From assembly GCF_009931435.1 (NCBI RefSeq), contig NZ_CP043414.1: a DNA stretch of 64,000 bases; one strand, 5' to 3'. The notes under the pieces were generated by a model. The model searched no databases. It was not told where the DNA came from and saw nothing but the letters and a program-made list of their open reading frames with translations. Below are positions 36,127 to 58,647 of this stretch, one piece after another. Position 1 is the first letter of the stretch. Every line of letters begins with the position of its first letter. This DNA is from Escherichia coli. Lineage in GTDB: Bacteria > Pseudomonadota > Gammaproteobacteria > Enterobacterales > Enterobacteriaceae. The position numbers and the translations under genes were made by a program.

Positions 36127-37315
36127 CGGAAAGGTGGCGGGGGATTCACGGAGATAATATCTGTCTGAAATTGTTTTTAATCGATGGGATTGTTGCGTAT
36201 TAACATGAAGGAGATCAGGACTTATCCGTTACTGGGTGATCTCCTTCCATGAAAATACGCCGTTATTGTTAAACAGCAGGCTGATTTCTCCGTAAAGGGG
36301 AAAATATTTATCGGCTGCATGATTATCAGGTGTGTCTGTGTTTACTGCTGTGAGTATTTTTCAGTGTATTGTGGGGGAGATGTCAGTGGGAGATATTAAA
36401 TTTACATTTATAATTATCTTACTTCTTCTGTGTGTTTTTTATAAGAGTGCACACGTAATGATATCTGTTGATACCATGTGGTTAAGTGTTTCCCTTCCTG
36501 GTCATGCGTAATGATTAAATGCTTTTGTGACACCATTCTTCCGGTCTGAATATTTATCCCGTTCTTTTTTATTTGTGCAGTGATACTGTCGGAAGAGAAT
36601 TCAGTAATGTGAGGTGTCCTGGTCAGGATAATATCTGCTGAGATATTATTAGTTGAGTGTGTTTTTACTGAGCAAAAGCTGGCTTTTAATTCCTGTACTG
36701 AAACGCTGTTGCTCGTCCGGGGTTAACTGAAACTGGATGATGATGTAAAATGAAGGCTGTTTTTGTGTTTGTCGAAGAAGTGTTATTTTAATCCATTCTC
36801 ATCATTGGCTGGCGATTATACAGAAGTATTTGAAGAAAAAATGGTGCATTTTATCTGCGTCAGCAGGGAGGAAGTATTTTATTGATGTATCAGTATTAAA
36901 TGGTTTTTGTTATTTAGAAATATGTCATCCTGTCCATAGAATATTGTACTCAGCATTCAGTGCAGGAACTGTAGTCTTCTTTATTTTATTCTTCTTCAGG
37001 AGGGGGGATTCCTGAAGGCGTTATTCCCGGTGTTCTGTTTATGATTCATCCCGGCAGGAAACCGGTATCTGCAATACCCGGGATGATGCTTTTTGTTCGT
37101 ACGTGGTTGTGTAAAATTTGAATAGTGGATGTGCTCTGAAGGGAAGGAGGGGACACACAGATTCATTTTGTCTTTCTTCAGCAGCAAAACACACTGTGGT
37201 TATTATTTAACCATTAAATCAACAAAAATTTTTACCTCATATTGATTTGACTGCTATTTTTGCTATTAATAGCCAGAATTGCAGTACTTTTATATCTGTG
37301 TGTAGTGAGGTTACT

Positions 37316-38800
37316 ATGTCATTCGGTCAGCCTTGTGATGAGTTTCCCCTGAGTTCGCTGCCTCCACTCATTCGTGATGCCGTTATTGAAGCTCAGCAAA
37401 TTACGCAGGCTCCCCTTGGGCTTGTGGCAGCGTCTGCCCTGGGCGCTGTTTCACTTGTCTGCCAGAATCTGATTGATGTCTGCAGACTGAATACACTGCG
37501 GGGGCCGGTCTCTCTTTTTTTCCTGACGCTTGCCGAGTCCGGAGAACGAAAAATCGCAGTGGACAAATTATTAATGAAGCCCCTGTATCAGCAGGAGATG
37601 CAGTTATATTCCAGATACAAAAGTGAACTGGCTGTCTGGAAAAACAAGGAAGAGCTTTTAAAGGCTCAGAAAAAAGCATTGTTGTCAAAACTGAATAAAG
37701 AACTCCGCAAAGGAGCGGATGAGTCAGAAACCCTCAGACAACTGGAAGTACTTCAGAAAAACAGTGCGGAAGAACCTGTGAGGTATAAATTCATTTTTAA
37801 TGATGCCACGACTGCGGCAATTAAGAATCAGCTTTGTGGTAAATGGCGTTCAGTGGGTATTATGTCAGATGAAGCCGGTATTATATTTGATGGATATACC
37901 CTGTCTGAGTTGCCATTTATTAACAAAATGTGGGATGGCTCTGTATTGTCTGTGGACAGAAAGAATGAACCCGAACAGATGATTGAAAATGCCAGAATGA
38001 CGTTATCCCTCATGGTGCAACCCGGTCTTTTTGACCGATATATGGAGCGAAAAGGTTCTGTTGCCAGGGACAGTGGTTTTCTTGCCCGTTGTCTTATCAG
38101 TAAACCTGCAACCACGCAGGGGAAACGCTTTATTAACGGAGCTGTGATTCCGGGAGGATCATTAACGGCATTTCATGAACGATTAATGGAACTGGCCAGA
38201 GGCAGTATTGAAAAATCCAGTGAGGATGAACGGTATTGTCTGCATTTTTCGCCTGAAGCGCAAAAAATATTTATTGAGCACTATAATGTTCTGGAGCAGG
38301 ATTTATCTCCCTCCGGTCCGTTAAGTGCGTTTCGGGGACATGTTTCAAAAAAAACAGAAAACATTGCAAGAATTGCAGCGTTATTTCAGTATTTCAGCTA
38401 TGGTGAAGGGAAAATCTCTGCCGATATCATGACGTCTGCTGTCGTAATAAGTTCGTGGTACACAGATGAATATAAAAAATTATTTGCGTTACCTGATGAA
38501 TCTGAACTGCAGCAGAAGGACGCCGAGGAGCTGTTCGACTGGCTCATTGAGGAGTGCCGCGGAGAATGCCCACCCCGTGTCAGGAAAAATTATATTCTCC
38601 AGTGTGGCCCGGGTCGGTTCAGAAACAGGAAAAAACTGAACGCATTGCTGAACATTCTTGAATCTCAGTTCAGGCTTTCTGTCGTGCCGGAAGGAAAAAC
38701 CATGTATGTTCTGCTTCCCCAGATAGCCAGTTTAAAGTTGTCTGATGTCTCTGGTATTTTTACCTCGGGTTATCACTACAATAAGCTGAGAGCGAAGTAA
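37316..38800 (+). CDS. DUF3987 domain protein (YfjI-like)
   Basis: 494 aa from MSFGQPCDEF with AGTGAGG RBS upstream; family assignment by recalled similarity to CP4-57 YfjI. Confidence 0.65.
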   Translation: MSFGQPCDEFPLSSLPPLIRDAVIEAQQITQAPLGLVAASALGAVSLVCQNLIDVCRLNTLRGPVSLFFLTLAESGERKIAVDKLLMKPLYQQEMQLYSRYKSELAVWKNKEELLKAQKKALLSKLNKELRKGADESETLRQLEVLQKNSAEEPVRYKFIFNDATTAAIKNQLCGKWRSVGIMSDEAGIIFDGYTLSELPFINKMWDGSVLSVDRKNEPEQMIENARMTLSLMVQPGLFDRYMERKGSVARDSGFLARCLISKPATTQGKRFINGAVIPGGSLTAFHERLMELARGSIEKSSEDERYCLHFSPEAQKIFIEHYNVLEQDLSPSGPLSAFRGHVSKKTENIARIAALFQYFSYGEGKISADIMTSAVVISSWYTDEYKKLFALPDESELQQKDAEELFDWLIEECRGECPPRVRKNYILQCGPGRFRNRKKLNALLNILESQFRLSVVPEGKTMYVLLPQIASLKLSDVSGIFTSGYHYNKLRAK

Positions 38801-40017: not shown

Positions 40018-41727
40018 GAGAATGTTCCTCCGGATGTTGTTAAACCAGCCGGTGTGGTCATGAAAACAACGCACCACCTTCACCGGCATAACAACCGGGG
40101 AGAAACGTAAAAAATAATCGGGAATGTGACCGCCAGGAGATAAACGGGGAGGTTACGGTGGCTGAGCCGTACCGGTATGCCGGGTGGTTGTTACGAAACG
40201 ATGCTTCCGCACGCGCGCGCGATAAAGAAGGGATGATTTTCGTGAGGAAGAGGGGAAAACTGGCGTTCTGATAATTGCAGAGTTATTTACGGGGCGGTTA
40301 CGATGGGGCAGACCGTGTCCGGTGGGCAGGCGACAGGTATCACCGATGGGATAAGACTGTCTGATTGGTATTATAAATATATAAGAGAGATCAAACACAT
40401 GAGATCAAATACATGAGTTCATATATGTGAAATAAACACGGTGAGTGTGATCAGTGGGCATGATGAGAACGCAGTAGCAACAGACTGCGCTATCCCTGAT
40501 AGCTGGCGTATAACCTGCGTATATAAAACGTACCAGCAACGCACGTGAACAGAGTGCATTAAGCATCCGTCGTTGACACCGACCTGGTGAGTGACAGTCT
40601 GAGAGACCGGTTAAGTGGTGGTACGGGAGTAATGAGTTTGGGGTGGGTACCAGAATGCCAGTCTGGCGGTATGCTGACAGTATCACGTTAATTGCAGCAT
40701 AAAGTGATGAGAGGCTAATGGAAGTTAAAACCAGAGCAGTTCCGTCGTTGTTCATCCCGGGAGACGCTGGAAAAAGTGATTTCCCACACGCGTTATAAGC
40801 TTACTCCAGCGGAGATGGAAGCCTTCAACTCTGCGGTCGATCACCGACTGGCAGAACTGACAATGAACAAGCTTTACGATCGTGTTCCCGCTTCAGTCTG
40901 GAAATATGTCATCTGAGCGTTCGGTAATCACAACTGCATCGCGCCAGGTGTTATCCGCTTTGTGATTCTTATTGGCTCTTCTCAGGTTATTAAAAGCTGA
41001 ATATGTTCCTGTTGTCGGGAACCAGGATAATACCGGGAGCGTTAAGCGGTATAGCGACAACAAAGAATTCGAAATCAAAAGGGAATGGTGCCGGAGGCGT
41101 GGGCGGTAATAGGCTGATTTTCAGGTATTACCGGCTTACAACGTGTGGTTGATATTGAGGGGCTGTGAGTTTCGCGTATTTGTCAGAAACCCAGATGAGT
41201 TTTCCTGTATGGGACGAAATAAGGCAGCGGCAATACCTGGAAAATTTAATATGGTATGAAGGAGAACCTGTCGGTTACGCTTAATATACACGGTACACTG
41301 TCAGCTCAGGGGATACATGAACCGTTATCTCACCAGCTACACAGTATACACACACTGACGCTGACAGTAGTCAGCAGGACCACAATAATCAGCGCCAGCA
41401 GTATGGTAACGATACGGTCTGTATTCCGGTAGTAGCCGAAGGGGTCGACAGAACCACAATACGGGCAACACACTGTATTATTAGTAATCGCGTTTCCACA
41501 GTCCCTGCACTTCTTTTGCGTATCACCATAACTCCCTCCTCACAGCCTTACCCGTAACCGGTTTTTTACATTAAAAAACAACGCTGAAAATTCAACCGTC
41601 AGTCCGGAGACGACCGTTCGGGTTATCACAGAGTGCCTGAGACAGTGTCCTGCCGGAGGTCACTTCAGGGACTCTGCGCATTTTTTACGACGTGGCTATT
41701 CCGTATGAACCATACGGAGATTTAACC

Positions 41728-42297
41728 ATGACCTACAAATACAACCCCTTCTGGCAGCAACGTATTCGTGAGACGGTGCGGCACGCACTGAATGTTCATC
41801 CCCGCCTGACGGCATTGCGGGTTGACCTGCGTCTCCCGGATGTACCGGCAGCAACGGACGCAGCTGTGATATCCCGCTTCATCAATGCCCTGAAAGCCCG
41901 AATCGACGCTTACCAGAAACGTAAGCATCGGGAAGGTAAACGCGTGCATCCCACCACCCTGCATTACGTCTGGGCCCGGGAGTTTGGGGAGTTCAAAGGT
42001 AAAAAACACTATCACCTGATGCTGCTGGTCAACCGGGATACCTGGTGTCGTGCCGGTGATTACCGCGCTCCGGAGTCTCTGGCCGGGATGATTAAACAGG
42101 CGTGGTGCAGTGCCCTGGGAGTGGATGTCGGGTGCCATGCCACGCTGGTGCATTTTCCGGCCTGGCCGGCGGTGTGGCTGGCGCGTAATGATGACACCGG
42201 CTTTCAGCAGGTGCTGGAACGTGCTAACTATCTGGCGAAGGAGCATACCAAAGCTCACTGCACCGGTGAGCGCAACTTTGGCTGCAGTCGTGGCTGA
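41728..42297 (+). CDS. YagK/YfjJ-family protein (inovirus Gp2-like domain)
   Basis: 189 aa from MTYKYNPFWQQRIRE with GGAG RBS; family assignment from recalled features. Confidence 0.55.
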   Translation: MTYKYNPFWQQRIRETVRHALNVHPRLTALRVDLRLPDVPAATDAAVISRFINALKARIDAYQKRKHREGKRVHPTTLHYVWAREFGEFKGKKHYHLMLLVNRDTWCRAGDYRAPESLAGMIKQAWCSALGVDVGCHATLVHFPAWPAVWLARNDDTGFQQVLERANYLAKEHTKAHCTGERNFGCSRG

Positions 42298-42462
42298 GCC
42301 AGACAGACGAGTTATCTGACTTCAGTGTGATGACGTGTTCACGGCCACCACACTGATTTTCCCTTATGAGACTGAACTGAAACCGCCATTCACACCTGAC
42401 CACGCTGCCCGTACCGGGACGGCTGTTGCCTGCGTGTCGTCTGACGGTAAGGAACATATACT

Positions 42463-42855
42463 ATGTACGCAAAATCCTTTCTCGCTCTTGATGGCAACGG
42501 ACGTCTGACGGGCGCCCGTACAGCACAGGCCGCACCTTATGCTCACTACACCTGCCACTTGTGTGGCAGTGCACTCAGATACCATCCGCAATACGACACT
42601 GAACTTCCCTGGTTTGAACACACTGACGACAGGCTGACAGAGCACGGTCAACAGTGCCCTTATGTCAGGCCGGAGCGCAGAGAAATACAGTTGATTAAAC
42701 GTCTGCAGCAATTCGTACCGGATGCCTTACCCGTGGTGCGTAAAGCCAGCTGGCACTGCAGACAATGTCACCACGATTATTATGGGGAGCGGTACTGCAC
42801 ACACTGCCAGACCGGAGGTTTCAGTCTTCCCCGGACAGCTCAGCAACTGTCTTGA
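42463..42855 (+). CDS. Zinc-ribbon protein with CxxC…PWFEH motif (paralog 1)
   Basis: 130 aa; CHLCGSAL…LPWFEH…WHCRQCHHDYYGERYCTHC; paralogous to ORF at 44019-44423. Confidence 0.55.
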   Translation: MYAKSFLALDGNGRLTGARTAQAAPYAHYTCHLCGSALRYHPQYDTELPWFEHTDDRLTEHGQQCPYVRPERREIQLIKRLQQFVPDALPVVRKASWHCRQCHHDYYGERYCTHCQTGGFSLPRTAQQLS

Positions 42856-42864
42856 ACGTAAAAA

Positions 42865-43851
<987 letters not shown>

Positions 43852-44018: not shown

Positions 44019-44423
44019 ATGCGAATTCTGAACTGCTATATGGCGAATGACAGCAAAGGCCATTTTGTTACGGCGAAAGAAGCCGCGAAGAACAACCGAC
44101 AGGACGTTTTGTGCTGTGTGTCCTGTGGTTGTCCGTTAACACTTAAGCGGGGCAATGACGGACAACCGCCGTGGTTTGAACATGACCAGATGACTGTTGC
44201 TGCGAAAATCCTGCTGCGATGCACCTGGCTTGACCCGGCAGAGAAAGAGGCCCGTCGTTTGCATCTGCAGGGCATGACGGTTCCGGATTATACGGTGAAG
44301 GTGAGAAAGTGGTTTTGTGTGATGTGTGACGAAGATTATGAGGGGGAAAAGTGCTGCCCGCGTTGTGGTACCGGGGTATACAGCAGGGATAGGGGGGCTG
44401 CAGGAGGGCAACTGGAAGGATAG
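44019..44423 (+). CDS. Zinc-ribbon protein with CxxC…PWFEH motif (paralog 2)
   Basis: 134 aa; CVSCGCPL…PPWFEH…WFCVMCDEDYEGEKCCPRC; strong AGGAGG RBS. Confidence 0.55.
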   Translation: MRILNCYMANDSKGHFVTAKEAAKNNRQDVLCCVSCGCPLTLKRGNDGQPPWFEHDQMTVAAKILLRCTWLDPAEKEARRLHLQGMTVPDYTVKVRKWFCVMCDEDYEGEKCCPRCGTGVYSRDRGAAGGQLEG

Positions 44424-44713: not shown

Positions 44714-45390
44714 ATGGGCAACGCAATGCACTCTCTTAAGACACTTTTAAAGTTACCTTGCGGATGGCGATGCAGTCGACAAATTATTAGCTCTGACGGT
44801 ATAACCCTCCATCTCCACGGAAAACGCAAAACAGCACAATGTCCTGAATGCTTTAAGCGTAGCGACTCTGTTCATAGTTGTCGTCGGCGCCGGATACAGC
44901 ATCTACCCTGCTCAGGGCAGACGCTATGGCTTGTATTTTCCGTCCGCCACTGGTACTGCCGTAACCCGGCTTGTTCACGTAAAATTTTTGCCGAGTCGCT
45001 TGCTCCCTTCGCCAGTTCACACCAGCAGTCTTCACAGGCGTTACAAAATTAACAACGTCAACTGGGATTAATAGCTGGAGGTGAGGCTGGAAAACGGGCT
45101 GCAACGGCAGCGGGTCTCCGTTGCAGTGCTGATACTCTTCTTCGCAGGCTTATCAATACCCCGGAGACGAAACAGTCAGGCGCGCCTCATGTCGGTATTG
45201 ATGAGTGGGCGTGGCATTGGGGCCACCGTTACGGTACGTTAATATTCAATCTTGATACTCACCGCCCCCTGGTCCTGCTTCCCGGCCGTGATCAGCGTAC
45301 GCTGGCGACCTGGTTCAGAAAAGGTCCGGAAATACAGGTTGTATCGCGTGATCGCAGTGGAGTCTATGCGACAGCTGAGGTAGCCTGAGT
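44714..45390 (+). pseudogene. ISL3-family transposase remnant (N-terminal zinc-finger region, frameshifted and 3'-truncated)
   Basis: N-terminal Cys/His zinc-finger ORF followed in another frame by …HVGIDEWAWHWGHRYGTLIFNLDTHRPLVLLPGRDQRTLATWF…VVSRDRSGVYA. Confidence 0.6.
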
Positions 45391-45439
45391 TTAACGGACA
45401 CTCCTTCCTGAAATAGAATGGCATCAGAAGGAGCTAATA

Positions 45440-45648
45440 ATGAGCAGAAAAACCCAACGTTACTCTAAAGAGTTCAAAGCCGAAGCTGTCAGAACGGTTC
45501 TTGAAAATCAACTTTCGATCAGTGAAGGCGCTTCCCGATTATCTCTTCCTGAAGGCACTTTAGGACAATGGGTTACCGCCGCCAGAAAAGGGCTCGGTAC
45601 TCCTGGTTCCCGCACGGTGGCTGAACTGGAATCTGAAATTCTGCAACT
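45440..45648 (+). pseudogene. IS3-family orfA fragment truncated by IS30
   Basis: MSRKTQRYSKEFKAEAVRTVLE… HTH orfA-type sequence ending exactly at the IS30 inverted repeat. Confidence 0.6.
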
Positions 45649-46869
45649 TGTAGATTCAATCTGTCAATGCAACACCCCTTTCAATTATCTCTTTCGGTGT
45701 TTTGAACTTCAGTGTCTTTCTCGGTCTGTTGTTTAGCTGAGCAGCAACCAGATCTAGTTCATGTTGAGTATATTGGGCAAGACATGTCTTTTTAGGAAAG
45801 TACTGCCGAATTAGCCCATTTGTGTTCTCATTTGTTCCCCGCTGCCAAGGACTCTGAGGATCGCAGAAGTAAACTTTAACGCCGGTGCTGACAGTAAATT
45901 CTAGATGTCTGGCCAGTTCCATTCCTCTGTCCCATGTCAGTGATTTTCTGAGTTCTGACGGTAAACTCAGGAATTTGTCGGTAAGAGCCTGATTTACTGA
46001 GACAGAATCTTTGCCCCTGAGTCTGAGGATGATCGTATAACGTGATTTTCGGTCTACAAGTGTGGCTATATGAGAGTTTTTTGTACCTGAGACTAAATCG
46101 CCCTCCCAATGCCCCAGAGAGCGTCTGTTATCGATATTTCGGGAACGTTCGTGAATTGGTGTTCCGTTCACTATGTTAATCGTACCTCTTTCGCCTTTGC
46201 GGGTATGACGCCTGCCATGGCGAAGGCTATGCGACCGTCGCAGATGCTGTATATTCAGGTGGTGTAGCGCTTCACGGCTACGAAAGTACAGCGTTTTATA
46301 AATTGTCTCAGGTGATATTCGCAGCGTTTTTTGACGTGGTTTTGTTCGCCTTAACCATCCTGATATTTGCTCTGGAGACCATTTCATCTCCAGCTTTTCC
46401 AGAACAAGCTTTCGCAATGGCAAATTTTGATCCAGTAAGCACGGTTTTGGCCTTTTCGCCATTCTGTTGGCTCGGTTATTAGCATCAACAGCTTTGTAAT
46501 AGCGTCTGCCCCGATTACGCTGAACTTCACGTGAGATCGTCGAAGGACTGCGATTCAGCGCAGTAGCTATCGCACGAATGCTCATTTTGGCTGACAAACC
46601 AGCTCGTATCTCCTCGCGCTCAGACAGTGTCAGGTGAGCTACAGCCCGCTTACGCTCATGGGGTTTTATGCCGCCAGTATCCCTTAACATAGTGAAGATC
46701 GTTCCGGGTTTTGAACCCAGGATATTCGCTATTTCACTGAAGCCTGTTCCGTTCTTCCATAGTTCAAAAACAGAGGCTTTTTCCTCTGCTGTAAATGTTC
46801 GTCTCATTCAAAAAACCTCCGCAACCCCATGTTTTCACATAACTGTTGCGTTGACCAATTGAATCTACA
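45649..46869 (-). mobile_element. IS30 (1221 bp, complete)
   Basis: Terminal inverted repeats TGTAGATTCAAT… at both ends; encodes 383-aa IS30 transposase. Confidence 0.9.
45656..46807 (-). CDS. IS30 transposase
   Basis: 383 aa MRRTFTAEEKASVFELWKNGTGFSEIA… with DDE motif region. Confidence 0.9.
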   Translation of the reverse strand: MRRTFTAEEKASVFELWKNGTGFSEIANILGSKPGTIFTMLRDTGGIKPHERKRAVAHLTLSEREEIRAGLSAKMSIRAIATALNRSPSTISREVQRNRGRRYYKAVDANNRANRMAKRPKPCLLDQNLPLRKLVLEKLEMKWSPEQISGWLRRTKPRQKTLRISPETIYKTLYFRSREALHHLNIQHLRRSHSLRHGRRHTRKGERGTINIVNGTPIHERSRNIDNRRSLGHWEGDLVSGTKNSHIATLVDRKSRYTIILRLRGKDSVSVNQALTDKFLSLPSELRKSLTWDRGMELARHLEFTVSTGVKVYFCDPQSPWQRGTNENTNGLIRQYFPKKTCLAQYTQHELDLVAAQLNNRPRKTLKFKTPKEIIERGVALTD

Positions 46870-47120
46870 GCGGCTTTTTTTAATATGTCCCGTTCGTCGG
46901 TAACCCGTTTCAGCTCTTTCTGGAGACGGCGGATCTCGGCCGGAGCATCTGACTGTTCTTTATTAGTGGAAGAATCCGGACCGTACTTCTTTATCCAGGC
47001 ATAAAGGCTGTGGGTGGTGATATCGAGACGTGTTGCAACGCTGGCAACAGAATAACCGCGATCAACAACCTGTTTGACTGCTTCAGTTTTAAACTCTTCG
47101 GGATAACGCTTACCGCTCAT
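46870..47120 (-). pseudogene. Second, different IS3-family orfA fragment truncated by IS30
   Basis: MSGKRYPEEFKTEAVKQVVDRGYSVASVATRLDIT… ; frame runs into the IS30 end. Confidence 0.6.
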
Positions 47121-48172
47121 GGGCACTTCTCTTTAAGCCATCTTAAATGACTCTGAGGTGTCTGTTAAACCCGTGGCGATTCAGTACAAAACACAACAAT
47201 AGCTTCATGATATATAAATACGTGATGACGAGTGGTACTCCGCATGGTTATTTAACTTCTCAGCACCACTAATGATCCTGAGCAACTTCGTATTTGGGCC
47301 ATTGCCATGGAGTAGAAAGCTGTGTCTGAGAATGCAGAATTTGAGAAAAGAATTAGCTTTCTTGGAGAGCTTCTGAAAATGGCACGCTAACAACGTTTTG
47401 TTAAAAAATGTGAATCACTTGCCGGGGCTGCATTTTCTATTCGAGGAGAATGTTGACGTAGATATTACAGAAATCTCAGCGCATCAGGATAAACTGCTAC
47501 CTTAGGTCAACCACCAAAAGAAAATACAATACGTCCAGTTTGTATGCCTTTAATAACACATCTTCTAAATGTTGAAGAATTATCCCGCCTGCTGAAGAAC
47601 GTTGCTCTGAGTGTGATAAACCTTTTTATTCTTGATGATGTCAGCGAGAAGATGGAATATATCCCCGACTGGGTCGTGGTTACCCGGTTAAACATCTGGT
47701 GGCGCTAATAAATCTGGCAGGTCACATTCTGTTGAATGCTGTGACAGTGCCTTACCGAGAGAGCGAAATTGTGGTGTTCTAGTGCATAGTCGCCACCATT
47801 CCGGATAATTCTATTGCGTTGTTTTACAAGTTCTTTTACAGCGCAGATCTGTCGCTGACGTTGAATCAATAGCCTGGATTTCAGAACACAATGCCTGTTT
47901 GCTGGTTGGTCCGGCAGTAGCATTAATTCATTATCTGAATGAAATGTGTCAATCCACAGAAACCGCTGTCAATGACGCATTTTGTCGGACGTTAACACGA
48001 GAAAGTTTGGCTATTCCGTAATGCCATCTTATTTCGTAATGGATTGAGAATGCTGGATTTTTAATTATATTACGCGCAGTATTAATCGCGTAAATGTTTT
48101 GCGGTCAGCAACGGTGGGGGATCCATTGTTCTGTTCAATGAATACCATCATACATTTGAATCAGGAGTCGGT

Positions 48173-51602: not shown

Positions 51603-51678
51603 TGGCTCCTCTGACTGGACTCGAACCAGTGACATACGGATTAACAGTCCGCCGTTCTACCGACTGAACTACAGAGGA
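51603..51678 (-). tRNA. asnV: tRNA-Asn (GUU)
   Basis: 76-nt sequence TCCTCTGTAGTTCAGTCGGTAGAACGGCGGACTGTTAATCCG…GGAGCCA on minus strand; anticodon GTT. Confidence 0.9.
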
Positions 51679-54011: not shown

Positions 54012-54087
54012 TGGCTCCTCTGACTGGACTCGAACCAGTGACATACGGATTAACAGTCCGCCGTTCTACCGACTGAACTACAGAGGA
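54012..54087 (-). tRNA. asnU: tRNA-Asn (GUU)
   Basis: Identical 76-nt tRNA-Asn sequence on minus strand. Confidence 0.9.
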
Positions 54088-58571: not shown

Positions 58572-58647
58572 TCCTCTGTAGTTCAGTCGGTAGAACGGCG
58601 GACTGTTAATCCGTATGTCACTGGTTCGAGTCCAGTCAGAGGAGCCA
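58572..58647 (+). tRNA. asnW: tRNA-Asn (GUU)
   Basis: Identical 76-nt tRNA-Asn on plus strand (inverted relative to the other two copies). Confidence 0.9.

Follow-up and report, generated by a model that had tools for sequence, protein, structure and literature searches.

A small zinc-ribbon gene of Escherichia coli CP4-44-type islands, very probably inactivated by a recent one-base deletion

The window, a 64,000-nt stretch of the E. coli contig NZ_CP043414.1, contains on its minus strand a short frame encoding a zinc ribbon and a C-terminal transmembrane (TM) helix. The frame lies between a 5'-truncated hha remnant, convergent with it, and a divergent gene of the YagK/YfjJ ('inovirus Gp2') family (Table 1). 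Machine translation of the minus strand of 41330-41551 yields VRL-stop-GGSYGDTQKKCRDCGNAITNNTVCCPYCGSVDPFGYYRNTDRIVTILLALIIVVLLTTVSVSVCILCSW-stop, which from GDTQKKC on (41539-41333) is identical to the hand translation given in a preliminary description of this DNA. That description had asked for the translation to be recomputed, and the repeated translation bears out all its details. The zinc-ribbon frame is closed by a TGA just upstream and therefore has no usable start; the first ATG, GTG or TTG in it is a GTG at 41473, which is 3' of the first CxxC. A strong ribosome-binding site (RBS) and an ATG are present in a different frame. The AGGAGG core of the Shine-Dalgarno (SD) sequence (41540-41535) is 5 nt 5' of this ATG, and the SD sequence is invariant in four aligned copies of the locus. 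From the intact RBS and ATG of the window copy, only a 46-codon out-of-frame ORF would be translated; among about 15 billion collected proteins, none is identical to its peptide. The zinc-ribbon peptide is not a chance ORF: in a tblastn search (E = 2e-40), 96.8% of 62 aligned residues were identical in an annotated E. coli protein of 66 aa, which belongs to the WP_001297219.1 cluster, a 64-66-aa enterobacterial family. The frame had also been correctly described as unannotated, as RefSeq genomes with identical DNA carry no annotation here.

Table 1. Features of the small-gene locus and its immediate neighbours (window coordinates; residues numbered as in the intact protein)
Feature	Coordinates	Strand	Remarks
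YagK/YfjJ ('inovirus Gp2 family') gene	41728..42297 (also delimited as 41692..42297)	plus	divergent; Pfam PF11726, E = 7.7e-48
hha remnant, 5'-truncated	40776..40916	plus	convergent; Pfam PF05321, E = 9.9e-20, profile positions 16-57 of 57
Probable pseudogene, whole	41330..41529	minus	200 nt; ATG 41529-41527 to TGA 41332-41330; alignment A1
SD-like sequence GAGGAGGGAG	41532..41541	minus	intact in the window; sequence
TGA closing the zinc-ribbon frame	41540..41542	minus	within the SD sequence, just upstream; machine translation
46-codon out-of-frame ORF MVIRKRSAGTVETRLLIIQCVARIVVLSTPSATTGIQTVSLPYCWR	41389..41529	minus	MVIRK and 41 unrelated residues, then TGA
A4 run, deletion site	41514..41517	minus	A5 in intact alleles, nt 13-17 of the coding sequence
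Zinc-ribbon remnant	41456..41509	minus	Cys8-x2-Cys11 ... Cys22-x2-Cys25
Asn codon AAT at residue 17	41480..41482	minus	CAT (His17) in every other aligned family member
C-terminal TM helix remnant IVTILLALIIVVLLTTVSVSVCILCSW	41333..41413	minus	residues 40-66

The gene order around the frame is conserved. In all distinct loci examined, including one in a Salmonella assembly, the divergent YagK/YfjJ gene is followed by two genes with DUF7828/Zn_ribbon_11 domains. Where the downstream flank was recovered, it usually carries a convergent hha gene or hha remnant, usually with an AlpA-type HTH gene beyond it. The window copy occupies this conserved position, its neighbours being confirmed by Pfam. 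PGAP annotates hha as 'missing N-terminus' in E2865 and in O26 11368. Over 7.5 kb, the window is 99.06% identical to an island of the O26:H11 strain 11368 that lies next to cobU and tRNA-Asn genes. This island carries genes encoding Ag43, a YeeP-like GTPase, and DUF932, antirestriction and RadC proteins, and this gene content identifies it as a CP4-44-type island. Three tRNA-Asn(GTT) genes (51603-51678 and 54012-54087 on the minus strand, 58572-58647 on the plus strand) are found in the neighbourhood of yeeO, cbl and nac, where the island borders on the chromosome; they correspond to the asn tRNA cluster flanking CP4-44-type islands. The YagK/YfjJ gene of the window has no blastn match at E <= 1e-3 to three K-12 cryptic-prophage loci, including yfjJ and yagK, and the family (PF11726) appears to be deeply diverged between island types.

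The module around the probable pseudogene is also decaying, as hha is truncated and the ORF of an IS110 transposase is split. The IS110-family element (42865-43851, minus strand) lies between the two DUF7828/Zn_ribbon_11 genes (42463-42855 and 44019-44423, plus strand). Its transposase is divided in the window into parts of 140 aa (Transposase_20) and 165 aa (DEDD_Tnp_IS110); in O26:H11 11368 and E2865, the same transposase is a single intact 969-nt CDS. The DUF3987 gene (37247-38800, plus strand) is an uninterrupted 517-codon ORF in the window and is split by an ISEc8 (IS66-family) insertion in O26:H11 11368 and E2865, so the window comes from neither strain, despite the shared small-gene haplotype. 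The window stretch 45375-47184 did not align to the 40-kb O26:H11 11368 locus; a 383-aa transposase ORF at 45656-46807 (minus strand), containing HTH_38 and rve domains, is IS30-like by its size and domains.

The DNA of the window is 98-100% identical to annotated loci (98-99% over 451 nt), among them those of ATCC 11775 (EAS44_RS25645, WP_001297219.1) and HUSEC2011 (WP_001297900.1), which we used as references for the intact allele. Both carry this gene, located in the island just as in the window, and the intact allele comprises 201 nt, that is, 66 codons and a stop. Alignment A1, which combines the two references with the copies from the window and E2865, contains one single-base gap, located in a run of A: the window and E2865 have CGCAAAAGAAG, with four A (A4), while the annotated copies have CGCAAAAAGAAG, with five (A5). 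The five A encode Lys5-Lys6, and the loss of one of them changes AAA AAG to AAA AG. Hence the frameshift of 1 nt directly after the start codon, which had been offered as one of two explanations, is right, and the missing A is located in codons 5-6. When the fifth A is restored, the ATG behind the SD sequence reads through to give MVIRKKKCRDCGNAITHNTVCCPYCGSVDPFGYYRNTDRIVTILLALIIVVLLTTVSVSVCILCSW, the 66 residues of WP_001297219.1. Following the loss of one A, the intact RBS and ATG read the 46-codon nonsense frame, and the zinc-ribbon/TM frame is left without a start. The homologues do carry the in-frame ATG for which a check had been proposed, as the intact CDSs translate to MVIRKKKCRDCGNAITHNTVCC...CSW. 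In contrast to them, the window copy has no uninterrupted frame from an ATG or GTG and is, in all likelihood, a pseudogene member of the WP_001297219.1 family.

Compared with the ATCC 11775 allele, the window copy has the deletion, the substitution His17Asn and one upstream SNP, with zero synonymous differences. So few differences indicate that the inactivation is recent. Once the frame is repaired, the two alleles encode proteins that are identical apart from residue 17. His17 is found in all 12 intact family members that were aligned, which cover three divergent variants. Its invariance hints at importance in the intact protein; His17Asn may either have been a further inactivating hit or reflect drift once the gene was inactive.

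To describe the alleles in the population, we surveyed 5,426 complete E. coli genomes; a 451-nt query spanning the site matched 3,544 of them. For the individual alleles, the queries were kept short enough for the top identity band to contain exact matches alone. The A5 48-mer (the intact allele) has an exact match in 2,436 records, the A4 47-mer (the window allele) in 213, and the A6 49-mer in 2, both from one strain series; thus, where this allele series is present, about 92% of the genomes carry the in-frame A5. The exact 89-nt haplotype of the window, defined by A4, T at 41530 and the Asn17 codon, occurs in 196 records, or about 92% of A4 copies. Its carriers include O26:H11 11368, RM10386, RM8426 and FWSEC0001, as well as ETEC TW11681. 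Since 196 of the 213 A4 records share one haplotype, the deletion is inherited and is neither an assembly artefact nor the product of a hypervariable tract. It appears to be essentially a single event, passed on together with the flanking SNPs in lineages including O26:H11, by descent or by island transfer. The 17 A4 records outside the haplotype represent a few independent deletions or later SNPs, these two sources being indistinguishable. Annotation differs between the alleles: copies identical to the window, such as that in E2865, are unannotated, and copies one base longer are annotated as a 201-nt CDS, 'hypothetical protein'. In a spread sample, 54 out of 54 rows at 97.9% identity span 48 nt (A5), and 53 of these have a CDS annotation; no sampled A4 row has any.

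Taken together, the frame, the alignment and the survey indicate that the window copy is, very probably, a recently inactivated pseudogene of a real 66-codon gene of E. coli CP4-44-type islands, broken by a deletion of one nucleotide. The odd start-less ORF is then an ordinary finding, a single-base pseudogene of a known RefSeq-annotated gene. The intact gene is already annotated in RefSeq in thousands of E. coli genomes, although it is uncharacterised. Inactivation is not limited to the A4 allele. SE694_RS14715 of strain 39EVA, annotated by PGAP as 'hypothetical protein, frameshifted', is also an inactivated copy of the WP_001297219.1 family in the same gene order; it differs from the window copy in belonging to the type-3 TM variant and in having its frameshift in the TM-coding part and not in the A-run. 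In E500002, the gene has an internal deletion. The differing lesions are plain decay, usual for island genes.

Several readings would leave the A4 copy with a product or a function. A shortened 47-aa protein (MCCPYCGSV... and the TM helix) could start at the internal GTG 41473 and keep some membrane function. The corresponding ORF, 41473-41330, does exist and retains the whole TM helix; however, no SD-like sequence precedes the GTG (the upstream sequence is ACTAATAATACA), the zinc ribbon cannot form as the first CxxC is gone, and ribosomes coming from the strong upstream RBS cross this GTG in another frame. We therefore regard such a protein as very unlikely. We would give equally little weight to the idea that the A4 allele is still alive, a trickle of protein being kept up by low-level -1 slippage at AAA-AG, with its upstream SD-like element and rare AGA, or by occasional reversion from A4 to A5. 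If this were so, the A-run would act to dim the expression of a protein that serves the YagK/YfjJ island module as a functional partner.

Recoding, the second explanation offered in the preliminary description, fares slightly worse and seems extremely unlikely. Here, a -1 shift at the A-run (AAA, then AAG), or an A added by RNA polymerase, would produce MVIRKKKC... and so the full protein from A4. A -1 shift after Lys5 would indeed give the wild-type protein exactly, an SD-like element is located 14 nt 5' of the A-run, and the next zero-frame codon is AGA, a rare codon that could pause ribosomes. In its A-rich site, the SD-like element upstream and the right protein resulting from a -1 shift, the locus resembles a programmed -1 frameshift of the dnaX type, although only on the surface, as the window site has neither the slippery heptamer nor the stimulatory structure nor the conserved layout. 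In particular, there is no X XXY YYZ heptamer: the zero frame reads CGC AAA AGA, in which tRNA-Lys slipping by -1 would pair with CAA. The sole perfect re-pairing is a +1 slip onto AAA 41516-41514, which leads into the third frame, and that frame stops after 10 codons (GAA GTG ... TAC TAA). For the 83 nt downstream, the folding energy is -19.5 kcal/mol, no better than the mean of -19.8 for shuffled sequences (z = 0.08), so no stable structure is evident. As for slippage in transcription, the tracts known to cause it are much longer than four A. Finally, the two-frame layout is not conserved: A4, with 213 records against 2,436 for A5, is a minority allele with one main haplotype, and the divergent homologues are all encoded in one frame.

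Phase variation, with the A-run serving as a contingency tract for a reversible on/off switch, could be proposed from the three tract lengths in the population, A4, A5 and A6. However, the tract is just 5 nt long, A6 is nearly absent (2 records), the occurrence of a single SNP haplotype in 196 of the 213 A4 records points to descent and not to repeated switching, and the copies of 39EVA and E500002 are inactivated by lesions elsewhere in the gene, all of which makes a switch exceedingly improbable. Homopolymer indels are the most frequent long-read error, and the two A6 records from one strain series may be such errors, but that one base was dropped in the window from a source strain that is truly A5 is hardly credible given an 89-nt haplotype (A4 and two linked SNPs) present in 196 complete genomes from many laboratories, including O26:H11 11368.

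The intact gene was characterized through its relatives. A word-indexed search returned 78 of them. Almost all come from E. coli or Shigella; one entry bears the name Klebsiella and one the name Salmonella. They fall into three variants, in which the N-terminal half, MVIRKKKCRDCGNAITHNTVCCPYCGSVDPFGYYRNTDR, is almost invariant and the hydrophobic tails are different. By the Nei-Gojobori method, dN/dS between the variants is 0.05-0.29 (dS 0.27-2.5) in the zinc-ribbon half, codons 2-39, and 0.36-1.65 in the TM half; still, the best 19-residue Kyte-Doolittle window scores 2.9-3.0 in all three TM variants. This pattern fits a soluble domain constrained in its sequence and a tail that would be constrained in its character only. 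The exact 66-aa protein is found on at least 1,000 contigs, under source names such as 'zinc-ribbon domain-containing protein' and 'predicted nucleic acid-binding Zn ribbon protein'. The purifying dN/dS in the zinc-ribbon half, the preserved hydrophobic tail, the fixed gene order and the presence on at least 1,000 contigs show that the intact gene is real.

In K-12, no counterpart of the gene was found in CP4-57, CP4-6 or CP4-44 either by blastn or, at better than E = 0.06, by tblastn, and hence the gene has no K-12 name. On plasmids the gene is rare: eight plasmid records contain it, several of which are megabase-sized and look like chromosomal sequence filed as plasmids. In a phage collection, the only match was one 20-residue fragment; together with weak PHROGs matches, this gave no grounds for a phage origin. 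A literature search on the island module, the protein accessions and the sequence returned nothing relevant. Simple consensus scans found no sigma-70-like promoter or intrinsic terminator on the minus strand, a result that is uninformative for a possibly silenced island.

The zinc ribbon and C-terminal TM helix noticed at the outset are both recovered in the intact protein: there are two CxxC knuckles, weak matches to zinc-ribbon HMMs, a strongly hydrophobic C-terminus and a predicted helix. In alignment A2, there is no variation at Cys8, Cys21, Cys22 and Cys25 and almost none at Cys11; C8-x2-C11 and C22-x2-C25 are thus conserved as the two knuckles of a zinc ribbon with a short beta-hairpin spacer. 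The Kyte-Doolittle maximum, 2.99, falls on residues 40-58 (the best 19-residue window). AF2 applied to the family alignment predicts a helix at residues 34-65, with pLDDT of about 92 over residues 41-60, and short strands at both CxxC knuckles with pLDDT of just 55-65, so the model is confident for the helix only. Residues 1-39 carry a net charge of +4. By these predictions, the intact allele encodes a protein that has a soluble, basic N-terminal domain and, at its very C-terminal end, its only TM helix, as expected of C-tail-anchored proteins, and we infer that in A5 strains the protein would be a tail-anchored inner-membrane protein with the zinc ribbon in the cytoplasm and almost nothing beyond the membrane.

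The same topology, a cytoplasmic N-terminal domain and a C-terminal single TM helix, is known from ElaB, YqjD and YgaM, bacterial C-tail-anchored inner-membrane proteins that contain a DUF883 domain and no zinc ribbon. Unlike in topology, we found no sequence relationship between them and the intact protein. No Pfam model reached its gathering threshold (best match 16.5 bits, cutoff 23.2), nor did any NCBIfam model (16.6, cutoff 32). The best matches in both are generic zinc-ribbon models at E = 0.005-0.08. Among those of Pfam, Zn_ribbon_3, DZR, UPF0547 and zf-ChsH2 match weakly over residues 5-28, sharing the two CxxC knuckles about 10 residues apart; generic proteins composed of a zinc ribbon and a single TM helix share the basic linker followed by one hydrophobic helix. 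In PHROGs, residues 6-59 weakly match the N-terminal zinc-ribbon/TM part of phage proteins in phrog_38187 and phrog_10292, although these are longer families (136-178 profile positions) without an annotated function. An exhaustive profile search of 1.84 billion representatives gave 53 matches, about 27 of them the same gene. The remainder is a weak tail of unannotated 61-78-aa proteins of the same layout, C-x2-C-G ... C-x2-C-x-S-x-DPFG ... R-x-DR.

Two other assignments were considered and set aside. A defence role found no backing in PADLOC, where neither the small protein nor the neighbouring YagK/YfjJ and DUF7828 proteins had a match. An RNA gene was rejected, as Rfam gave nothing credible within 40500-42500. 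For a type I toxin-antitoxin system, in which a short hydrophobic peptide is paired with an overlapping or adjacent antisense RNA, Rfam has no family in this interval and PADLOC gave no match. The cysteine-rich soluble domain of 39 residues would be atypical for membrane toxins of such systems, but an RNA not yet described may be present.

In the loci examined, the neighbours of the intact gene in CP4-44-type islands are always the YagK/YfjJ and DUF7828 genes. This strict placement next to a Rep-like (YagK/YfjJ) gene and two DUF7828/Zn_ribbon_11 genes suggests a role in the module, and our guess would be that the intact protein acts together with the YagK/YfjJ-DUF7828 module, for instance, as a membrane tether for a partner that could be a protein or a nucleic acid. 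As a conserved small predicted membrane protein that is under purifying selection and has no curated family, it makes a modest candidate for small-protein studies.

The deletion also has a consequence for annotation. PGAP leaves the A4 pseudogene unannotated in every sampled A4 genome, which, if general, amounts to about 200 complete genomes. The O26:H11 reference strain is among the unannotated, and pan-genome tables would score the gene there as absent and not as broken. A different detail of annotation concerns the type-3 variants, which begin with ATC GTG and not with ATG GTG, as seen in AR_0162 (L006, 3173-3370) and 39EVA (L008, 3117-3313). In these, the PGAP CDS starts at ATC, and the real start may be the GTG one codon downstream.
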